Source: Escherichia phage kaaroe
DNA: 64,000 nucleotides
Strand: one strand, 5' to 3'
Sequence record: MN850574.1
Both the position numbers and the translations under genes were made by a program. Shown in pieces: positions 3,874 to 55,139 of this stretch; positions within the stretch are counted from its first letter, which is position 1, and every line of letters starts with the position of its first letter. Below the pieces are notes generated by a model. The model saw nothing but the letters and a program-made list of their open reading frames with translations. It was not told the origin of the DNA and did not search any database.

Positions 3874-3908
3874 TTGACAATAAGAAATGGGAGTAGTAAA
3901 ATACTCCC
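3874..3908 (+). promoter_or_regulatory. early promoter with GGGAGTA/TACTCCC hairpin (PeSL-like)
   Basis: TTGACA 3874-3879, 17-nt spacer, TAAAAT 3897-3902; arms GGGAGTAG 3889-3896 and TACTCCC 3902-3908. Confidence 0.6.
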
Positions 3909-4220: not shown

Positions 4221-4787
4221 ATGGTACAGAAAACGTATAAATTGTATCCGGCTAAGTCTTCAAATGATGCTGTTTTTGAACGAGGTCGTTATTACACTTT
4301 CCGTAATGCTGAGTCCGCAGAGGAATTTGTTAAACGCTACCCACAACATAACAAGTTCCTGTATGGTGTGCTTCACAGGGGCTTTAAAGTTCTTACGGTT
4401 AATGTTATGGGTAAAGTGTATTTGGTAGAAACTCATGATTATGAGGGTGCATCAATCATGATTGATGCAAGCGAGCGCAAATACTTTAAACGCATCACTA
4501 AAAAGCAGTTTGAAGAAATGAAACCAGTTAAGAAAGAAGAATCTCTGGAAGATCTGATTAACTTGTTTGGTAAAGTTCGCTCTATCTCCTTTGCGATTGA
4601 AGATGACATTACCGACAATAAAATCTTTATCAAGAACGCGGAAGACCTGAAAGAGTTCCTTATTGAAAATAGATCTCGGCTGGAAACCTTTCTTGAAAGT
4701 GAAATTATTCGACATGATACCTACGCTAAATTCAGCGCCGATAAAGTAGCTGAACTGAAAGAGATCCAAAAGTCATTTAACGCTTGA
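4221..4787 (+). CDS. hypothetical protein, paralog family A member 2
   Basis: Shares GFKVLTV and ERKYFKRITKKQFEEM modules with 4844..6022. Confidence 0.55.
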   Translation: MVQKTYKLYPAKSSNDAVFERGRYYTFRNAESAEEFVKRYPQHNKFLYGVLHRGFKVLTVNVMGKVYLVETHDYEGASIMIDASERKYFKRITKKQFEEMKPVKKEESLEDLINLFGKVRSISFAIEDDITDNKIFIKNAEDLKEFLIENRSRLETFLESEIIRHDTYAKFSADKVAELKEIQKSFNA

Positions 4788-4818
4788 CATGATGAAACGG
4801 GAGTAGTAAGATACTCCC
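4784..4818 (+). promoter_or_regulatory. early promoter with GGGAGTA/TACTCCC hairpin (PeSL-like)
   Basis: TTGACA 4784-4789, 17-nt spacer, TAAGAT 4807-4812, arms GGGAGTAG/TACTCCC. Confidence 0.6.
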
Positions 4819-8578: not shown

Positions 8579-9118
8579 ATGATGATGTTTTGTGTACTGA
8601 ACAAAGAAGTTAAACTTCGTAAACTGGAAATTGGCGATGGTGTTGTTGTTAAAATGCACGCTAGCACATTGACTAGTTTTAATTTAAAGGAAAGTTTTTT
8701 TATTAGAGGAACGGTGGTTAATATCTGCTGGAGTAAAGGCGAAGGAATCCGTAGCTTTTGCGTAATTGACGATGATAATAACCTGTATGTGATTCGCTAT
8801 CATAATAATTCTGTATTGGTCTATACCGACAATTCACGAGAATTGTATACTCTTGAATTTGTTAAGCGTACTGATTGCGATCGATTTGTTCGTGCTTATG
8901 AAGAAGATGGCTGTTTTGCGACTGAAACAGAAACAAATGAATATGTTCCTATGGAAGTAGGAGCAGAAATTAAACACAAGATCACGGATCGTATTTTTAA
9001 GGTTGTTGCGGTTGCTCATACTCAATTTGTAGCGCAAGCGCCGGATGAAGAATTTATTATCTACAATATTGGTAATGCAAGTTCTCATTTTCATAATGTA
9101 CTATATCGCGACCTTTGA
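8579..9118 (+). CDS. hypothetical protein
   Basis: ORF downstream of promoter with GAGAGG RBS. Confidence 0.5.
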   Translation: MMMFCVLNKEVKLRKLEIGDGVVVKMHASTLTSFNLKESFFIRGTVVNICWSKGEGIRSFCVIDDDNNLYVIRYHNNSVLVYTDNSRELYTLEFVKRTDCDRFVRAYEEDGCFATETETNEYVPMEVGAEIKHKITDRIFKVVAVAHTQFVAQAPDEEFIIYNIGNASSHFHNVLYRDL

Positions 9119-47027: not shown

Positions 47028-47198
47028 ATGAACTGGTATAAAATTTGGAAAAATCAGGTGGAGGCTTATCTAGGGTATAAGCCAACCGACGAAGAATTAC
47101 TTGAAGCAATGTACGAAGACGGCTTAAATCCGAAAGTAGCCGCGCAAGAATACGCGGAATGGGTGAAGGTCGAAGATAACCTAAAGGGGAAACTATGA
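47028..47198 (+). CDS. hypothetical small protein
   Basis: ATG 47028; 56 aa. Confidence 0.35.
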   Translation: MNWYKIWKNQVEAYLGYKPTDEELLEAMYEDGLNPKVAAQEYAEWVKVEDNLKGKL

Positions 47199-47395
47199 AG
47201 AAAATGATTGCGATTGCTTTGCTGGCTAGTGCATGTACGGTAAATGCTAATACCGCAGCGATGGTCGCGGCTGTAACTGCTGCAAATGCGTCTGTTATGG
47301 CATCGCAAGAGGCAGCACGCCAGCAAGCACAACAAGAAGCCCAGCGAAAAGCACATGAGGCGACGAAAAATTTCACGAAAATAACAAAAAACTAG
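47195..47395 (+). CDS. small secreted or lipoprotein-like protein
   Basis: N-terminal signal-like MKKMIAIALLASAC with possible lipobox Cys; Ala/Gln-rich mature part. Confidence 0.4.
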   Translation: MKKMIAIALLASACTVNANTAAMVAAVTAANASVMASQEAARQQAQQEAQRKAHEATKNFTKITKN

Positions 47396-47430
47396 TTGAC
47401 GCCAAAGGTCATCGGTAGTATTATACTCCC
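47396..47430 (+). promoter_or_regulatory. sigma70-type early promoter with degenerate hairpin
   Basis: TTGACG 47396-47401, 17-nt spacer, TATTAT 47419-47424; GGTAGTA..TACTCCC arms. Confidence 0.5.
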
Positions 47431-47458
47431 ATACCGAAACGAACTGGAGGAAATAAAA

Positions 47459-47701
47459 ATGGTTAAAGTTAATGTTATCGAAGTTGCACTGTACGACGCT
47501 GGGATCTTCCTGAATGAAAAAGAAGCTGCCGTCCTCGACGAACTGAAAACTGTTTTTGTTCCTGTAGTAGAAGACGTAGAAGCAATCAAAATCGCTTCTC
47601 GTAAACTGTCCCGCGAAGCATTCGACATGATTGATCCGGTTTTCAAAGTTATGCACGAATGCGCGGTTATGATGACCGAAGAAGAAGCGAAAAATTTCTA
47701 A
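47459..47701 (+). CDS. hypothetical protein
   Basis: GGAGG RBS, ATG 47459. Confidence 0.45.
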   Translation: MVKVNVIEVALYDAGIFLNEKEAAVLDELKTVFVPVVEDVEAIKIASRKLSREAFDMIDPVFKVMHECAVMMTEEEAKNF

Positions 47702-47708
47702 AAACTAG

Positions 47709-47743
47709 TTGACGTAAAGATAAGGGAGTAGTAACATACTCCC
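47709..47743 (+). promoter_or_regulatory. early promoter with GGGAGTA/TACTCCC hairpin (PeSL-like)
   Basis: TTGACG 47709-47714, 17-nt spacer, TAACAT 47732-47737; arms GGGAGTAG 47724-47731 and TACTCCC 47737-47743. Confidence 0.55.
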
Positions 47744-47766
47744 ATACCAAACGAAAGGAGAATCAC

Positions 47767-47976
47767 ATGAAATCTATCGAGCAAGTAGTAACAGAGTTTA
47801 TGAGCTACGAAGGAAACCGCATCTTTGGACGTTCTCAAGTTCGCGAGATCGTAGAAGAAGTTGCTGGAGAGTTTGCGGAATCTGGTCACATTATCACGCA
47901 AGAACGTAAAGAAGAAGCAGTAAACCAGATCATGGCTATACAGAAAATGCGTATTAATGCACGAGCGGGGGCTTAA
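47767..47976 (+). CDS. hypothetical protein
   Basis: AAGGAGAATCACATG start context. Confidence 0.45.
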   Translation: MKSIEQVVTEFMSYEGNRIFGRSQVREIVEEVAGEFAESGHIITQERKEEAVNQIMAIQKMRINARAGA

Positions 47977-47977
47977 A

Positions 47978-48277
47978 ATGAATTTTACCGATAAAGTTTT
48001 TGAAATTAGTCGCACTACTTCAATTAAAAATCTTAGGGCGGCTGCATTTATGGTTGATAAAGGGTTTAATATGGCATCGTCTGACGGTGTACCGTACTTT
48101 GCACCAACTTTCGTTGGCTGGATGACTGATCGTAAACGTGATTACACTAAAGCATATCCGCATATGGTACTTAGTAAAATTATCACTAAAGTGTATCCAC
48201 ATATGGTACTTAATGACGTTATCACGGACCACGATCACTTTACAAACTTTATTGTTTCCGGTGAATGGCGAAAATAA
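47978..48277 (+). CDS. hypothetical protein with internal 13-aa tandem repeat
   Basis: ATG 47978; YPHMVLSKIITKV / YPHMVLNDVITDH from a 39-bp direct DNA repeat. Confidence 0.45.
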   Translation: MNFTDKVFEISRTTSIKNLRAAAFMVDKGFNMASSDGVPYFAPTFVGWMTDRKRDYTKAYPHMVLSKIITKVYPHMVLNDVITDHDHFTNFIVSGEWRK

Positions 48278-48288
48278 TTTAAAACTAG

Positions 48289-48323
48289 TTGACACCGGAT
48301 TAAGGGAGTAGTAACATACTCCC
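48289..48323 (+). promoter_or_regulatory. early promoter with GGGAGTA/TACTCCC hairpin (PeSL-like)
   Basis: TTGACA 48289-48294, 17-nt spacer, TAACAT 48312-48317; arms identical to the 47709 copy. Confidence 0.55.
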
Positions 48324-48351
48324 ATCAAGACAAAACACTGAGGAATATATT

Positions 48352-49110
48352 ATGAAAAACATTATCGCTGCTATCGTTCTTTCTGCTACTGCTTTCGGTG
48401 CTAACGCTGCGTCCTTTGATTGCGCTAAAGCTACTACCAAATCAGAGAAGTTTATTTGTGCTAATGAGTCTATCTCCGCACTGGACTCTAAACTTCATGA
48501 GGTGTATGTTAAGGCTGTTAAGATTGATCCGTCTCTGAAACAAGAGCAACGAAACTGGAATAAAACTGTTCGTGATACAATGATCAATATAGGGCAGATT
48601 CAGCCACTGGAGGCTGTATATAACGCTCAAATCCAAAACTTGATGAATGTATTACCTAAAGAAGAAACCGCGTCAGAAAGCGATTCAGAGACTTCTGCGA
48701 AGGTTGAAGAAGAACAACCGAAACAGGAAGCAAAAGTGGTAGAAGAACCGAAGGTCGAAACTTTTACCTATCAATGTACCGTTCGTTATGAGTGGAGTAT
48801 GAAAGATGGAATTTCCACAAAAATTAAAGAGGCTCCACTGTATGCAAAATATGGAAACCAGCCAGGGGATCTTAAAGTAACCATTAAAAATGGGAAGATG
48901 GTTGATTTTGTATACACTGATGAATACAACGTACACAAAGCAAACGTACAAGAAACCGTTATGACTAAAGGCGGGTTTTATAAGAATGTTGGCAAGAAAG
49001 ATCTATATGAATACTCCGTTTTCGAACCAAACGACGGAACTATTCGATTTGAAAAACGTCATCCTACATTCGGTGGAGCAATTGATGTAGATCAATACGT
49101 TTGCAAGTAA
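48352..49110 (+). CDS. secreted protein with LprI/DUF1311-like N-terminal domain
   Basis: Signal peptide MKNIIAAIVLSATAFGANA; CAKATT..E.FIC..ISALDSKL..VY pattern typical of DUF1311; acidic linker then C-terminal domain with second Cys pair. Confidence 0.5.
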   Translation: MKNIIAAIVLSATAFGANAASFDCAKATTKSEKFICANESISALDSKLHEVYVKAVKIDPSLKQEQRNWNKTVRDTMINIGQIQPLEAVYNAQIQNLMNVLPKEETASESDSETSAKVEEEQPKQEAKVVEEPKVETFTYQCTVRYEWSMKDGISTKIKEAPLYAKYGNQPGDLKVTIKNGKMVDFVYTDEYNVHKANVQETVMTKGGFYKNVGKKDLYEYSVFEPNDGTIRFEKRHPTFGGAIDVDQYVCK

Positions 49111-49121
49111 GAGGTTAAATT

Positions 49122-49409
49122 ATGCAATTCAATAACATGAAGATTACAAAAGATTGGTGGAAGGCGATGCAAGATACTCCAGAAACCAAATTAAGCGAGA
49201 CAACAACCACAATACAAGTTGATTACGAAGATCCGAAAGACATATACAGAGAGATTTTAATCAGAGAGCTTATAAAAGCTGGAAACTATCAAACACCAGA
49301 TGGCCTTATTGACATGATGGTTAAAGGTCTGTATAGTGGTAAAAATCCAGATATTTTACCGTGGTACGAGGGATATTTTAAAACATATCGTGACCACAAC
49401 CGAAAATAA
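49122..49409 (+). CDS. hypothetical protein
   Basis: ORF with AGAGG RBS. Confidence 0.45.
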   Translation: MQFNNMKITKDWWKAMQDTPETKLSETTTTIQVDYEDPKDIYREILIRELIKAGNYQTPDGLIDMMVKGLYSGKNPDILPWYEGYFKTYRDHNRK

Positions 49410-49432
49410 GTTGTTGACGTGAGGATTATATT

Positions 49433-49624
49433 ATGGTAATTTTTAATCGCGATGGTATCATAGTTCGGCAGCATCCATTCCTTGAATACTATCAGGTTGA
49501 ACAATGGGGATATGGAGATTGCAACCGCTCATACGGTCAAAGCTGGGGATACCGTACAGTTTTTGAATCAACTAATATTGACAAAGTACGACAGAAAGTT
49601 TTAGAACTTCTTAACGATAAGTGA
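49433..49624 (+). CDS. hypothetical protein
   Basis: GAGGATTATATTATG start context. Confidence 0.4.
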   Translation: MVIFNRDGIIVRQHPFLEYYQVEQWGYGDCNRSYGQSWGYRTVFESTNIDKVRQKVLELLNDK

Positions 49625-50356: not shown

Positions 50357-50689
50357 ATGTTTAACTATGACAAATATGAATCATGGAAAGCGACCGAATT
50401 GAAAGAGGCAGCGCGGTTAATCACACCGCGTCTTTATCCGGTGTTGTTTAGCGCAGATAAAGTAACAAGGGAAGTAAACGAGGCGCTATCGGTTTTAGGC
50501 TATCTGATCGATAAAGTAGAGAAAACATCGGTATTCACAAATAGCGTAGAATATACCCGGTATCGAGTGTTTTTAGATTCCTTGCTCGTTGTCATTAAGG
50601 CACTAAATGATCATAACTACACCATGAACATGACGAAAATAATCGACGAAGCAAGAATTATGACAGAGAATATTTTCGGTAAATTTTGA
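50357..50689 (+). CDS. hypothetical protein, paralog family C member 1
   Basis: C-terminal ..IIDEARIMTENIFGKF similar to the next gene. Confidence 0.45.
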   Translation: MFNYDKYESWKATELKEAARLITPRLYPVLFSADKVTREVNEALSVLGYLIDKVEKTSVFTNSVEYTRYRVFLDSLLVVIKALNDHNYTMNMTKIIDEARIMTENIFGKF

Positions 50690-50803
50690 TTATGAAAGAT
50701 GATGAATCATTGAAAATTGCACTGGTTATGCTATTACAAGGTATAGAATTAGCAAACCACGAAAAAATGTTGAAACAACAGCGTGAAATTATGAGAGGTG
50801 ATT

Positions 50804-51127
50804 ATGATCGAGTTTGAAATTGACAACTTTCACGAAAAAGCAGAAGACCTAACCAAAATTTTGATTAGTCGAGGTGCATATAATACGAAAGATATTATAA
50901 AAGAAGTTAATGTAGCGATGGACGCGATCCGAAAGGAATTTAAACATATTTCAGCGATTGGAGAAAATGGTCATCTTGAAGATGTTGAGCTGGTAGCACT
51001 GCGACGCTATTACTTCTTTGTTGATTGCATCATTGATCTAGCTAAAAATTATAGTCATTACATGAAAGATATTGTAAAAGATGCACGTAAGCTGGCAGAG
51101 AATGTTTACGGGAAGTTTCCAGAATGA
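50804..51127 (+). CDS. hypothetical protein, paralog family C member 2
   Basis: C-terminal ..IVKDARKLAENVYGKF similar to the previous gene. Confidence 0.45.
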   Translation: MIEFEIDNFHEKAEDLTKILISRGAYNTKDIIKEVNVAMDAIRKEFKHISAIGENGHLEDVELVALRRYYFFVDCIIDLAKNYSHYMKDIVKDARKLAENVYGKFPE

Positions 51128-51372
51128 AATTAGAACAAGCGATTGTATACTTTGAGATGGGCTATGATATTGCTCGTGTAGAGTGGGAAGATGGTGATTT
51201 TGTCCGATTGATTGATCTTCCAGAAACAGCTATTGCACTGGTCAAAGTAGAAAACGGCGTACAACGAAATTACGCGTTTTCTGACGAAGACAAACAAGCC
51301 GATGACTGGTACGCTACCTGTTTTCATCATACAGCGTCAAAATGCGATTCAGGCGCGTCTATGCGCCAATAA
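51124..51372 (+). CDS. hypothetical protein
   Basis: Last + strand ORF before the convergent terminator. Confidence 0.4.
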   Translation: MKLEQAIVYFEMGYDIARVEWEDGDFVRLIDLPETAIALVKVENGVQRNYAFSDEDKQADDWYATCFHHTASKCDSGASMRQ

Positions 51373-52376: not shown

Positions 52377-55139
52377 TTAATTCTTTTTAAGTTCCGCTAG
52401 TTCAGCTTTAACGGCATTCAATTCTTCGCTCATTTCCTGAAACGCCTTAATTAAAAGAGCGTTGACAGCAGAGTTAGAAATTGTTAAGATCTCTTCTGGC
52501 TTATCGGGATCGCCGATGTTAGAAGTTGTTACTGCTTCCGGTAATTCTTTTTCAAGATCCTGAGCAATAATACCAACTTCATGAGCAATGACAGTACGGT
52601 CGGTTAAAGATTTAACCTTGTCATAGGTGTATACCGTCAAGCGATTAACTTTATCAGTGGCATTCTCCTTATACTCTTCCTTGTTGATTTTAAGGCGAGC
52701 ATCAGAGCGAATGTAAACGTCGTTAAAGTTACCATTGCGTCCAGCTTGGAAATCGCCGTTTTTATAGAAGGTAGTATTAGATTCAACACCAGAACCTTTA
52801 ACATGAACTCGCCATGAACCTTCATTAAGAAGCATACCCAACGAGAATGTTACTGCACCTTGAACATAACGTTGCTTGATCAAAGGAACATATGTAGACG
52901 CATCACCACGGTCTAAACGTTGGAAAATAGGTGCTTTGACGTTATCATCATGTTGAGATGCAAAAGAACCAGCACCCGCAGAACCAGAATCTATAGTAAT
53001 GACGCTAGCGCCGCGTTGAATAGCATTACCAAAATTCAGACTACCGCCTACGTTAGCATCGCTTCCGCTATAGAAAGAACCTGCAACAGAGAACTTAACC
53101 GGACCAGTTCCACCCGCAGTACGTTCGGTATACCAATGATAACTTGTTGCATCCGTACATTCAAAAACTTGTTTTCGTGATTCATTACCCCATGTATGGA
53201 GACTAAATTGCGAAGAAGAACCACGGTTAGCATGGAATGTAATTTCGCCAGATTCTACACGCACAAATCCTTTAAATCGCGCAGTAATTTCACCGGTTGC
53301 CATTTTACGTTCAGTTGTGAAGTGTGCACCGCTATTGTCTTCAAACTGCAAAATGTTATCACGGGCGTTATTGCTATCACCCCAATGGTTGATTTTAAAG
53401 AAATCACGAGATCCTAATCGTCCACTAGAGAAATGAAGGAAACCTTTTTCTACATAAACATCACCCGTAAAACGAGCGGCTTTGCTTGCACGTTCTAACG
53501 TTAATGCAGCTTCGTTACCGTCACCGCCTAATTGAACGTTACCGGAAGTCAAATCGTAAATGAATGGTCGGTTGCCGTTCCACCCACCAAAACGATCATT
53601 TTCGGCAGTAGAAAGAAGATAAACTTTAGTGCCGTCATTACGCCAGAATGCACCATAATTACCAAAGATCATACGGTATGCATCAGAATTGGCAGCTACA
53701 TATTGACCATTAGTGTATACAATTTTGGTTGCACCTGCGCTTAAAGATACTTGACCACTTGCTTCTAGCTTAACAAAGTTTTTACCTTCGTCACTATACC
53801 ATTGAAAATCGTTGGTTTCTGTAGAACCAAAACCAAACCAGCCTTGACGTTTATTAGCCCCGTCTCGCTGATCCATATATTCAAAATAGTTACTACAACC
53901 AGTAGGACGCCACATACGAATCGCGTTATTGCCTTGCAGATGAAGTCTATTGACAAATAAACCATCACTACCAACAATTTTTAATACTTCTTTTTGGTCG
54001 GTGGAACCAGTAGCCAAACGATACACATCACCTTGAACAGTTTCATGCCATATTGTTTCCGCCGCACGACTGCGGAATTTACGCATATATTTTTTATTGT
54101 TGTCTGGTACGTTATTAAGGCTCACAATATCATAGGTTGCTTGTGAGTTATTATCAAACATCAACGTTCCGGCTTTGTTTTCTGTGTTGAACATCGTAAT
54201 AACACGAGCATCAAATTTAGTTCCGGTTGCTGGTGCAGTCGCCGAAAATTCAGGAACATCATAAACAGTCAATGCGACGTCAACAGTTTTTCCAAACTCT
54301 ACAATAACGTTATCGGTGTAACGACCATAGTTAACATAAATGTCATAGTTATCACCGGAAGTATTAATTGCAAATACTTCATGGACGTTCAAAGAATTTC
54401 GACGATATGCAGCAATAGTAACACCTTTAGGATTTCCATTCCCACCACGAATCACGATTTCAAGGAAATCCACCTGGTCGTAGGATTTAACATTAAATCC
54501 GTTTCCACCATAGATACGAATAAATGCCATTTTTCCTTGCTGGGGGATCATTGCGGTTGCAATCTTAAAGTAGCCACGAGTTGCGTCACCGGAAGGAACA
54601 GACATTTTAACGTTCTTAACAAACATACGGTCAATTTCTTGTTTGCTATAAACGTTCAATTCTCCTGGAGTTGGTTTATCACCTTCGTGATACATTTTAT
54701 AACTAAATGCTTTTTGACCTTCTCTATTATAGCCATAAGTTTCTACACGCGATCCAGTGTGCCCATACTGGAAAGTAAATCCTCGACCATGTTGGACACC
54801 GGAAGAGTGAGGAACGTTTAGCGTGAGTTCGAGAAGACCATCAAGACCATTGGTACGGAAAGCGCCAAAGTAGTTAAGATCTCTCGCTGTCTGATCTTCC
54901 AGATAGTTAGCGGTTTTACTTAAGATATAATTATTACCTTTAACCTTACCCGCCATTGTAACATCGCGGTCATAAACCGGAGGACAACTTAAATTGATAA
55001 TAGTACCGGAATCATTTTTAGTAAGAAGATATTGATCCGCAAGGTTGATTGCCAATTCCCCCGGATTCATCGTACTAGCATCAGGTTTACGACCTTTAGT
55101 GCTAGTGCGTTTAAATTGGATTCTGCTTAAATCTGCCAT
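52377..55139 (-). CDS. 37: long tail fiber distal subunit gp37 with C-terminal intramolecular chaperone (peptidase S74-like) domain
   Basis: N-terminal RIQFKR..PGELAINL and internal AGAGSFASQ..DASTYVPLIKQRYVQG match recalled T4 gp37; C-terminal SDARLK..GIIAQDLEKELPEAV matches the S74 chaperone signature. Confidence 0.9.
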   Translation of the reverse strand: MADLSRIQFKRTSTKGRKPDASTMNPGELAINLADQYLLTKNDSGTIINLSCPPVYDRDVTMAGKVKGNNYILSKTANYLEDQTARDLNYFGAFRTNGLDGLLELTLNVPHSSGVQHGRGFTFQYGHTGSRVETYGYNREGQKAFSYKMYHEGDKPTPGELNVYSKQEIDRMFVKNVKMSVPSGDATRGYFKIATAMIPQQGKMAFIRIYGGNGFNVKSYDQVDFLEIVIRGGNGNPKGVTIAAYRRNSLNVHEVFAINTSGDNYDIYVNYGRYTDNVIVEFGKTVDVALTVYDVPEFSATAPATGTKFDARVITMFNTENKAGTLMFDNNSQATYDIVSLNNVPDNNKKYMRKFRSRAAETIWHETVQGDVYRLATGSTDQKEVLKIVGSDGLFVNRLHLQGNNAIRMWRPTGCSNYFEYMDQRDGANKRQGWFGFGSTETNDFQWYSDEGKNFVKLEASGQVSLSAGATKIVYTNGQYVAANSDAYRMIFGNYGAFWRNDGTKVYLLSTAENDRFGGWNGNRPFIYDLTSGNVQLGGDGNEAALTLERASKAARFTGDVYVEKGFLHFSSGRLGSRDFFKINHWGDSNNARDNILQFEDNSGAHFTTERKMATGEITARFKGFVRVESGEITFHANRGSSSQFSLHTWGNESRKQVFECTDATSYHWYTERTAGGTGPVKFSVAGSFYSGSDANVGGSLNFGNAIQRGASVITIDSGSAGAGSFASQHDDNVKAPIFQRLDRGDASTYVPLIKQRYVQGAVTFSLGMLLNEGSWRVHVKGSGVESNTTFYKNGDFQAGRNGNFNDVYIRSDARLKINKEEYKENATDKVNRLTVYTYDKVKSLTDRTVIAHEVGIIAQDLEKELPEAVTTSNIGDPDKPEEILTISNSAVNALLIKAFQEMSEELNAVKAELAELKKN

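Follow-up and report, generated by a model that had tools for sequence, protein, structure and literature searches.

The gene at positions 48352-49110 of a 64,000-nucleotide stretch of DNA from Escherichia phage kaaroe (sequence record MN850574.1; the whole stretch is termed the window here) encodes a predicted secreted protein with two domains, an N-terminal helical domain that belongs to the LprI/DUF1311 family by profile score and a C-terminal domain that is confidently predicted to be a β-barrel. By comparison of homologous sequences, at least six alleles of the barrel exist, which diverged long ago and have been exchanged as cassettes on an N-terminal module that itself hardly varies, and the gene has apparently been captured from a lytic phage by a temperate phage that integrates at hicB in Escherichia coli. 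We tentatively propose that the protein is a periplasmic binder or inhibitor of peptidoglycan hydrolases that enter from outside, serving exclusion in the manner of T4 Spackle, immunity, or both, a role that we hold to be possible and somewhat short of probable. The domain call itself is not new, as the UniProt and NCBI names of these proteins already carry LprI, and an earlier note on this DNA had made the same call from the letters alone. What the present analysis adds is the predicted fold of the second domain as a barrel, the ancient cassette-type polymorphism of that domain and the transfer of the gene from lytic phage to prophage.

Kaaroe belongs to Krischvirus, the RB49-like T4-type coliphages, and the window is collinear with positions 1-43,003 and about 142,900-164,018 of the RB49 genome. 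The closest DNA to the region 47900-49500 is that of phage FL37 (99.3% identity), with RB49 at 97%. The gene is situated in an accessory 'hyperplastic' early region that has gene 52 (topoisomerase) on one side and the holin gene t, about 2.3 kb away, on the other, and the synteny of the gene region is also kept in metagenomic Krischvirus-like contigs. Its product matches PHROG 14799 across the full length. The RB49 orthologue is carried as a 'hypothetical protein' in the RB49 annotation, is listed in UniProt as 'Lysozyme inhibitor LprI-like N-terminal domain-containing protein', and has counterparts in E. coli that are named 'lysozyme inhibitor LprI family protein' at NCBI. A weak DUF1311 match for RB49 ORF260c, probably the same gene under an older numbering of open reading frames (ORFs), was tabulated in 2006 (PMC1524935). 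The gene is present in 58 Krischvirus records, and this Krischvirus-wide conservation, together with strong purifying selection on the N-terminal domain, confirms the reading frame as a real gene.

Architecture of the predicted protein

The N-terminus reads as a Sec signal peptide, with a lysine at position 2, a hydrophobic core of 12 residues and an A-N-A signal peptidase I site (MKNIIAAIVLSATAFGANA, followed by ASFDC at the mature end). It lacks a lipobox and the protein is therefore predicted to be soluble, without a lipid anchor. Residues 1-20 have a predicted local confidence (pLDDT) below 50 in an AlphaFold2 model of the full protein that was built from a 20-sequence alignment. A crude hydrophobicity scan of the window returned the ORFs at 48352-49110 and 47195-47395 as plausible, and seven further matches that look like short spurious ORFs.

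The mature protein begins with the residues that had been taken in the earlier note as the hallmark of DUF1311 (C-x2-A-x-T…F-x-C…LD..L…Y), and these are present exactly, as C24-x2-A27-x-T29, F34-x-C36 and L44-D45..L48...Y52. A search with hidden Markov models places residues 24-76 in the LprI family (PF07007) with E=1.4e-5 and 25.9 bits, above the gathering cutoff of 22. The same family is found above its cutoff in proteins with other barrel alleles (P0003, P0009 and P0019; 24.3-26.4 bits) and at or above it in three phage homologues of only 27-33% identity (22.0-28.4 bits), and a search with a profile of the N-terminal domain pulls in many proteins annotated with PF07007. C24 and C36 are invariant across all homologues (the ASFDC...IC motif). 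The model of this domain consists of four helices (residues 30-37, 39-58, 62-80 and 83-98; pLDDT 73-82). Searches of the Protein Data Bank (PDB) with the full protein sequence and with the N-domain profile gave nothing useful and no solved DUF1311 structure, and none of the 50 matches listed in a Foldseek comparison of the full-length model with the PDB concerned the N-terminal domain.

The acidic linker and second domain that had been described after the LprI motif are both seen in the model, at residues 104-134 and 135-252, and the cleavable signal peptide and DUF1311 assignment of the same note are likewise borne out by the results above. The linker has a charge of −7.1, and pLDDT falls below 50 over residues 104-130. 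The C-terminal domain is β-rich with a pLDDT of about 90 and is confidently predicted to be a barrel of 8-9 strands, of the same fold class as the MliC, PliC, ACP and PhiA inhibitors; the predicted model contains the eight-stranded antiparallel β-barrel that characterizes MliC/PliC. Only C142, C251 and one glycine (G153) are invariant in this domain. C142 is located in strand 135-151 of the model and C251 in strand 244-251, the first and last strands, between which a disulfide is characteristic of the fold class of MliC/PliC-type barrels (PMC5507604). The cysteines would form one pair per domain, C24/C36 and C142/C251, as expected of a periplasmic protein oxidised by DsbA. Foldseek returned no PDB match to the full-length model at E≤0.001, just generic barrels of the lipocalin, FABP and NHBA type. 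Since profile searches of two protein sets (5.8 billion and 1.84 billion sequences) recovered only the family itself, plus spurious matches to repeat proteins (Rib, FMN_bind), the barrel appears to be an orphan family.

Barrel alleles and prophage copies

Among the homologues, residues 1-125 are almost invariant, whereas barrels of different types share 17-39% identity. In DNA sequence, the genes of RB49, Phi1 and JSE are 95-97% identical over the first ~400 bp, cannot be aligned in the part that codes for the barrel, and return to identity around the stop codon. Codon analysis of the N-terminal domain in phages and prophages gave synonymous divergence (dS) of 0.06-0.26 and ratios of nonsynonymous to synonymous divergence (dN/dS) of 0-0.11. 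For the barrel, dS is saturated between alleles (1.4 to >2) and dN/dS is 0.04 inside the RB49-type allele. The saturation between alleles and the low ratio within one argue for old, constrained alleles reassorted by recombination and not for a fast-evolving domain, and they rule out recent positive selection as the source of the diversity of the C-terminal domain. Three alleles are found in Krischvirus isolates: the RB49-type accounts for ~44 records, the Phi1-type for 11 that come from nine phages, and the JSE-type for two, both of phage JSE. Further barrel alleles are present on metagenomic contigs with Krischvirus synteny.

The 5' breakpoint of the cassette is in the distal part of the repetitive linker-coding DNA, at about 48730-48760, with identity to Phi1, JSE and the prophage copies stopping in 48730-48759. 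The 3' boundary is formed by the conserved first ~40-70 nt of the downstream ORF261. ORF261 itself has at least three diverged alleles, with 41-50% amino acid identity between types; these assort independently of the barrel alleles, which rules out the barrel and ORF261 as a co-varying pair. Alleles that are ancient, individually conserved and free to reassort, as those of the barrel are, form a pattern that is typical of specificity or immunity modules.

The same gene was found in 26 of 5426 complete E. coli genomes, one copy each. At all five chromosomal loci inspected a lambda-like prophage is inserted at hicB and has the gene at its outermost position, with hicAB adjacent. The prophage copies carry at least two barrel alleles, and over the N-terminal 380 bp they share 94-96% identity with the phage gene, the similarity beginning 6 bp 5' of the ATG. 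In P0013-type copies a 25-codon remnant of ORF261 (MQFNSMKITQKWWDAMKANHQNDIN, then a stop) directly follows the stop codon of the gene, only part of ORF261 having been kept. The remnant is located at 8790-8867 of one E. coli prophage locus (L005), is also present in two others (L006 and L009), and is absent from a P0019-type copy (L003). On the strength of this remnant and the shared N-terminal DNA, a Krischvirus-like lytic phage was apparently the source from which an E. coli prophage captured the gene. The same signal peptide and ASFDC LprI module, fused to other C-terminal domains, recur in more distant two-domain relatives in Klebsiella Marfavirus, Aeromonas Ceceduovirus and a lambdoid Radostvirus, and the gene of the last of these adjoins xis/int.

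Possible functions

The protein would be expressed early, from its own σ70-type promoter, and exported by the Sec pathway to the periplasm, where removal of the signal peptide after Ala19 would leave a soluble product made of the LprI/DUF1311 helices, a flexible acidic linker and a small β-barrel closed by a disulfide. There it may bind and neutralise peptidoglycan-cleaving enzymes that arrive from outside, the first candidates being the lysozyme domains on the tail spikes of superinfecting phages and the second being cell-wall-directed toxins of the type VI secretion (T6SS) or bacteriocin type. The infected cell, or a lysogen in the case of the prophage copies, would be spared superinfection, lysis from without or an attack by competitors. 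A common binding or anchoring role would fall to the conserved LprI domain, and the interchangeable barrel alleles would determine which enemy enzyme, or which variant of it, is recognised.

This proposal draws on the membership of the N-terminal domain in the LprI family, the ties of that family to peptidoglycan glycosidases, the predicted timing and place of the protein, and the allele pattern. It draws also on the apparent lack of homologues of the T4 exclusion proteins in Krischvirus phages, which nevertheless carry the gp5 tail lysozyme. A tblastn search of the RB49 genome and the window with T4 Spackle (Sp, gp61.3) gave only a chance match (E=0.07) inside gene 41, and the same search with T4 Imm detected no homologue; the sole lysozyme domain in the phage (Phage_lysozyme) is part of the tail spike protein gp5. 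In addition, independent phage lineages carry the same combination of signal peptide and ASFDC LprI module with other C-terminal domains. A role in envelope protection would fit the early promoter, the Sec signal, the hyperplastic accessory region and the cargo position as outermost gene of the prophage.

Binding of peptidoglycan glycosidases appears to be the common thread of periplasmic LprI-domain proteins. Mycobacterium tuberculosis LprI (Rv1541c) binds lysozyme (as cited in PMC7933661) and presents the same order of secretion signal, LprI/DUF1311 helices and small eight-stranded barrel (architecture per PMC7933661). The kaaroe protein differs from it in being phage-encoded, in being predicted to be soluble, without a lipobox, and in having a polymorphic barrel without sequence or motif similarity to MliC. 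Salmonella ScwA, which controls the levels of the lytic transglycosylase MltD, is likewise a soluble periplasmic LprI-domain protein, with disulfides that depend on DsbA (PMC7933661); in contrast to the phage protein, its LprI domain is at the C-terminus of an all-helical, 275-residue chromosomal protein that has no barrel. Etsi4, a DUF1311 protein of enterohaemorrhagic E. coli (O157), has been shown by experiment to neutralise the T6SS effector Etse4, which is toxic in the periplasm (PMC12981562), and predicted LprI immunity proteins in Pantoea and Salmonella Dublin adjoin T6SS effectors that are lysozyme-like or contain LysM/transglycosylase domains (PMC9796082, PMC8867033). These immunity proteins share a signal peptide, the LprI domain and a periplasmic location with the kaaroe protein, yet they are single-domain proteins of about 120-150 residues encoded beside an effector gene, whereas the phage gene adds a barrel and has ORFans as its neighbours, with no T6SS effector gene beside it in the phage or prophage loci inspected.

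T4 Spackle, the inhibitor of the gp5 tail lysozyme in superinfection exclusion, offers a further comparison. It too is the product of an early gene of a T4-type phage, has a Sec signal and is a small disulfide-bonded periplasmic protein (PMC7677548), the disulfides of the kaaroe protein being predicted. Spackle differs in that it is a single, highly conserved helical bundle of 75 residues, whereas the kaaroe protein has two domains, the second hypervariable, and no sequence similarity to it. The functional analogy with Spackle is only a hypothesis.

Several observations weigh against an inhibitor of incoming hydrolases. The function of the kaaroe protein, as of its phage homologues, is a prediction only. 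M. tuberculosis LprI also holds an MliC domain, and MliC is experimentally sufficient for lysozyme resistance (PMC7933661); ScwA, which has the LprI domain only, gives no lysozyme protection, and its authors point out that the LprI domain itself is without experimental evidence of lysozyme inhibition (PMC7933661). The name LprI thus over-states what is established about the domain, and of the interpretation in the earlier note the family assignment stands while the step from LprI domain to lysozyme inhibitor is not established. The PF07007 match is itself modest, as the alignment spans profile positions 1-71 of 106, or two thirds of the model, with the fourth predicted helix (residues 83-98) where the remainder would fall, and the confidence of the structural model is moderate in this domain. 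Neither of the MliC/PliC motifs, SxSGAxY and YxxxTKG, is found in the barrel of any of the 20 alleles or sequences examined, and a lone TKG is present solely in the RB49-type allele. Pfam MliC (PF09864) does not match at E≤10, and comparison of the C-domain alignment with E. coli MliC in hhalign gave a probability of 0.35%, with no profile similarity. These motif and profile comparisons rule out membership of the barrel in the MliC family; relative to MliC/PliC, Neisseria ACP and Brucella PhiA it also has an extra strand and the fusion to LprI, and the fold that it shares with them is common to many unrelated barrels. Finally, gp5 is 96-100% identical across Krischvirus whatever the barrel allele, so that the polymorphism is not tied to the phage's own tail lysozyme and a barrel allele that tracks the phage's own gp5 is ruled out.

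Control of the phage's own endolysin or of lysis timing had been raised in the earlier note and seems the least likely of the three roles considered there: inhibition of that enzyme is improbable because the RB49 endolysin is a Peptidase_M15_4 enzyme and not a lysozyme. A different link to lysis would be a ScwA-like modulator of host cell-wall enzymes, in which binding or stabilisation of a host lytic transglycosylase, MltD for instance, by the LprI domain would remodel or weaken the sacculus during infection, with effects on cell size or on the efficiency or timing of lysis. ScwA raises MltD levels and its long overproduction lyses cells (PMC7933661), and the holin gene t is close by. Such a role would nonetheless leave the anciently diverged barrel alleles unexplained by a conserved host target. 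RB49 lysis control is already served by rI, t and the spanins, all present in that phage, its endolysin is a peptidase and no glycosidase, and prophages with different lysis cassettes keep the same gene. Of the alternatives weighed here, this one seems to us the most improbable.

A barrel that faces the envelope could also mask a receptor, as T5 Llp and Cor do. It would bind the periplasmic face of a variable outer-membrane or envelope protein of the host, with LprI as the scaffold, and would thereby stop further phages at adsorption or DNA entry, or prevent progeny from being inactivated on cell debris. The protein is predicted to be periplasmic, early and polymorphic; cargo genes at prophage ends are often of this type, and barrel-shaped lipoprotein-like proteins are known in other phages. 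The alleles, however, do not co-vary with the tail-fibre gene 37. Kaaroe, with the RB49-type allele, has the gp37 tip in common with MIZ2/3/6, which have the Phi1-type allele, and Phi1 and GEC-3S have the same allele with different gp37, mismatches that rule out a barrel allele tracking the gp37 receptor-binding tip. The missing lipobox also implies that there is no outer-membrane anchor, and masking is in our judgement unlikely. Slightly better placed, and still doubtful, is a periplasmic counter-defence or another role apart from peptidoglycan hydrolases, for example neutralisation of an envelope-located sensor or defence of the host or a prophage. In that case the different barrels would serve as escape or specificity variants, with LprI as a stable secreted scaffold only. 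This would be consistent with a barrel that has no relatives beyond these phages, with the joining of the LprI module to unrelated C-terminal domains in other phages, as befits a carrier module, and with a Tad2-like anti-defence candidate in the same hyperplastic region. Scans with PADLOC and anti-defence families gave no match to the protein, however, and an NCBIfam scan no meaningful one; no specific target has positive support, and the recurrent association of LprI with cell-wall enzymes is left aside.

The proposed inhibition of incoming hydrolases can be taken further, to a 'specificity cassette' system in which a constant secreted LprI module would be combined with ancient balanced barrel alleles, each neutralising a different weapon that enters the periplasm (the tail-spike lysozyme of a rival, or a T6SS or bacteriocin muramidase). 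Recombination in the linker and at the beginning of ORF261 would exchange the alleles between virulent T4-type phages and carry them into temperate prophages, and the system would be the functional replacement of Spackle in Krischvirus. In this full form the idea is speculative and, on balance, unlikely. If true, a lysogen would owe its protection to an exclusion gene borrowed from just the sort of lytic phage to which it falls prey, and the protein would represent a class of superinfection-exclusion or immunity proteins that is both new and polymorphic.

The locus bears on how T4-type phages without Spackle and Imm exclude competitors and on the role of the widespread LprI/DUF1311 domain. It is a compact test case, as natural alleles vary the barrel alone with LprI constant and are found in lytic phages and prophages of systems that infect E. 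coli K-12. An allele-specific inhibitor of incoming cell-wall hydrolases would define a new family of phage proteins for exclusion or immunity and would make the combination of LprI and barrel an anti-hydrolase design that recurs from mycobacteria to coliphages. It would matter as well for phage cocktails and their design, given the therapeutic use of Krischvirus phages. If the protein is not an inhibitor, the gene would be an ordinary accessory ORFan with a domain that is already annotated.

Early promoter and neighbouring features of the window

The hairpin early promoter that had been noted upstream of the gene proves to be a canonical promoter-early stem-loop (PeSL) by its sequence, a σ70-type element of the class described for RB49 and phi1 (PMC2839356) and of the subclass in which the stem-loop overlies the −10 box. 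The stem-loop (GGGAGTA-GTAACA-TACTCCC, 48304-48323) has a GC-rich stem of 7 bp and a folding energy of −11.9 kcal/mol (z = −3.8). The composite promoter and hairpin motif is present in four copies in the window, at 3874-3908, 4784-4818, 47709-47743 and 48289-48323, compared with 0 expected by chance, and the subclass shares the sequence TTGAC-N10-GGGAGTAGTAA[C/A/G]ATACTCCC. As in the PeSL cassettes of RB49 and phi1, a σ70-like promoter with a stable stem-loop precedes an ORFan in a hyperplastic region (PMC2839356). Unlike in those cassettes, exchange of the barrel alleles has its breakpoints in the DNA that codes for the linker and at the 5' end of ORF261, not at the PeSLs. The features of the locus are collected in Table 1.

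Table 1. Features of the 48352-49110 locus, in window coordinates.
Feature	Position	Strand	Description and basis
PeSL early promoter/stem-loop	48289-48323	+	−35 TTGACA 48289-48294; −10 TAACAT 48312-48317; 17-nt spacer
Shine-Dalgarno sequence, GAGGA	48340-48344	+	7 nt 5' of the ATG; read from the sequence
Coding sequence	48352-49110	+	252 residues, ATG start; orthologue of RB49p262 (UniProt Q7Y3G7); predicted secreted two-domain protein
Sec signal peptide, residues 1-19	48352-48408	+	MKNIIAAIVLSATAFGANA; signal peptidase I cleavage predicted after A-N-A (A19)
LprI/DUF1311 helical domain, residues 20-103	48409-48660	+	Pfam PF07007, AlphaFold2, dN/dS
Acidic low-complexity linker, predicted disordered, residues 104-134	48661-48753	+	EETASESDSETSAKVEEEQPKQEAKVVEEPK; charge, pLDDT
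Variable C-terminal β-barrel (predicted), residues 135-252	48754-49107	+	RB49-type allele; invariant C142 in first strand, C251 in last strand
Downstream ORF261	49122-49409	+	95 residues; no signal peptide (cytoplasmic); ORFan; PHROG 15915

Upstream of the gene, a 1.1-kb block of four ORFans (47180-48275) stands in place of a 0.5-kb block in RB49; the PeSL at 47709-47743 is inside this block and that at 48289-48323 is just beyond its downstream end. One of the two ORFs singled out by the hydrophobicity scan is found here, a 66-residue frame (47195-47395) whose signal (MKKMIAIALLASAC...VNA) resembles that of Sec substrates or lipoproteins and which matches no family. A 106-residue ORF (47957-48277, plus strand) matches PHROG 19692 in two stretches and contains an internal near-duplicate peptide (KAYPHMVLSKIITKVYPHMVLNDVIT) that looks like a short tandem duplication.

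On the other side, beside the holin gene t, an 82-residue ORF (51124-51372, plus strand) scores 28.4 bits (cutoff 25; E=2.4e-6) against the Pfam Tad2-like family PF11195 (Thoeris anti-defence 2) and is a candidate anti-Thoeris sponge; the same weak annotation recurs in Krischvirus-like metagenomic contigs. Gene 37, for the distal tail fibre (52377-55139, minus strand), is a mosaic. Its tip-proximal 1.5 kb is best matched by MIZ2/3/6 (92%, full length) and is only about 54% covered in FL37 and RB49, which are otherwise the closest relatives around 48352-49110. Two ORFs of 109-110 residues (50357-50689 and 50798-51127, plus strand) are tandem paralogues, as they are adjacent and both belong to PHROG 9457.

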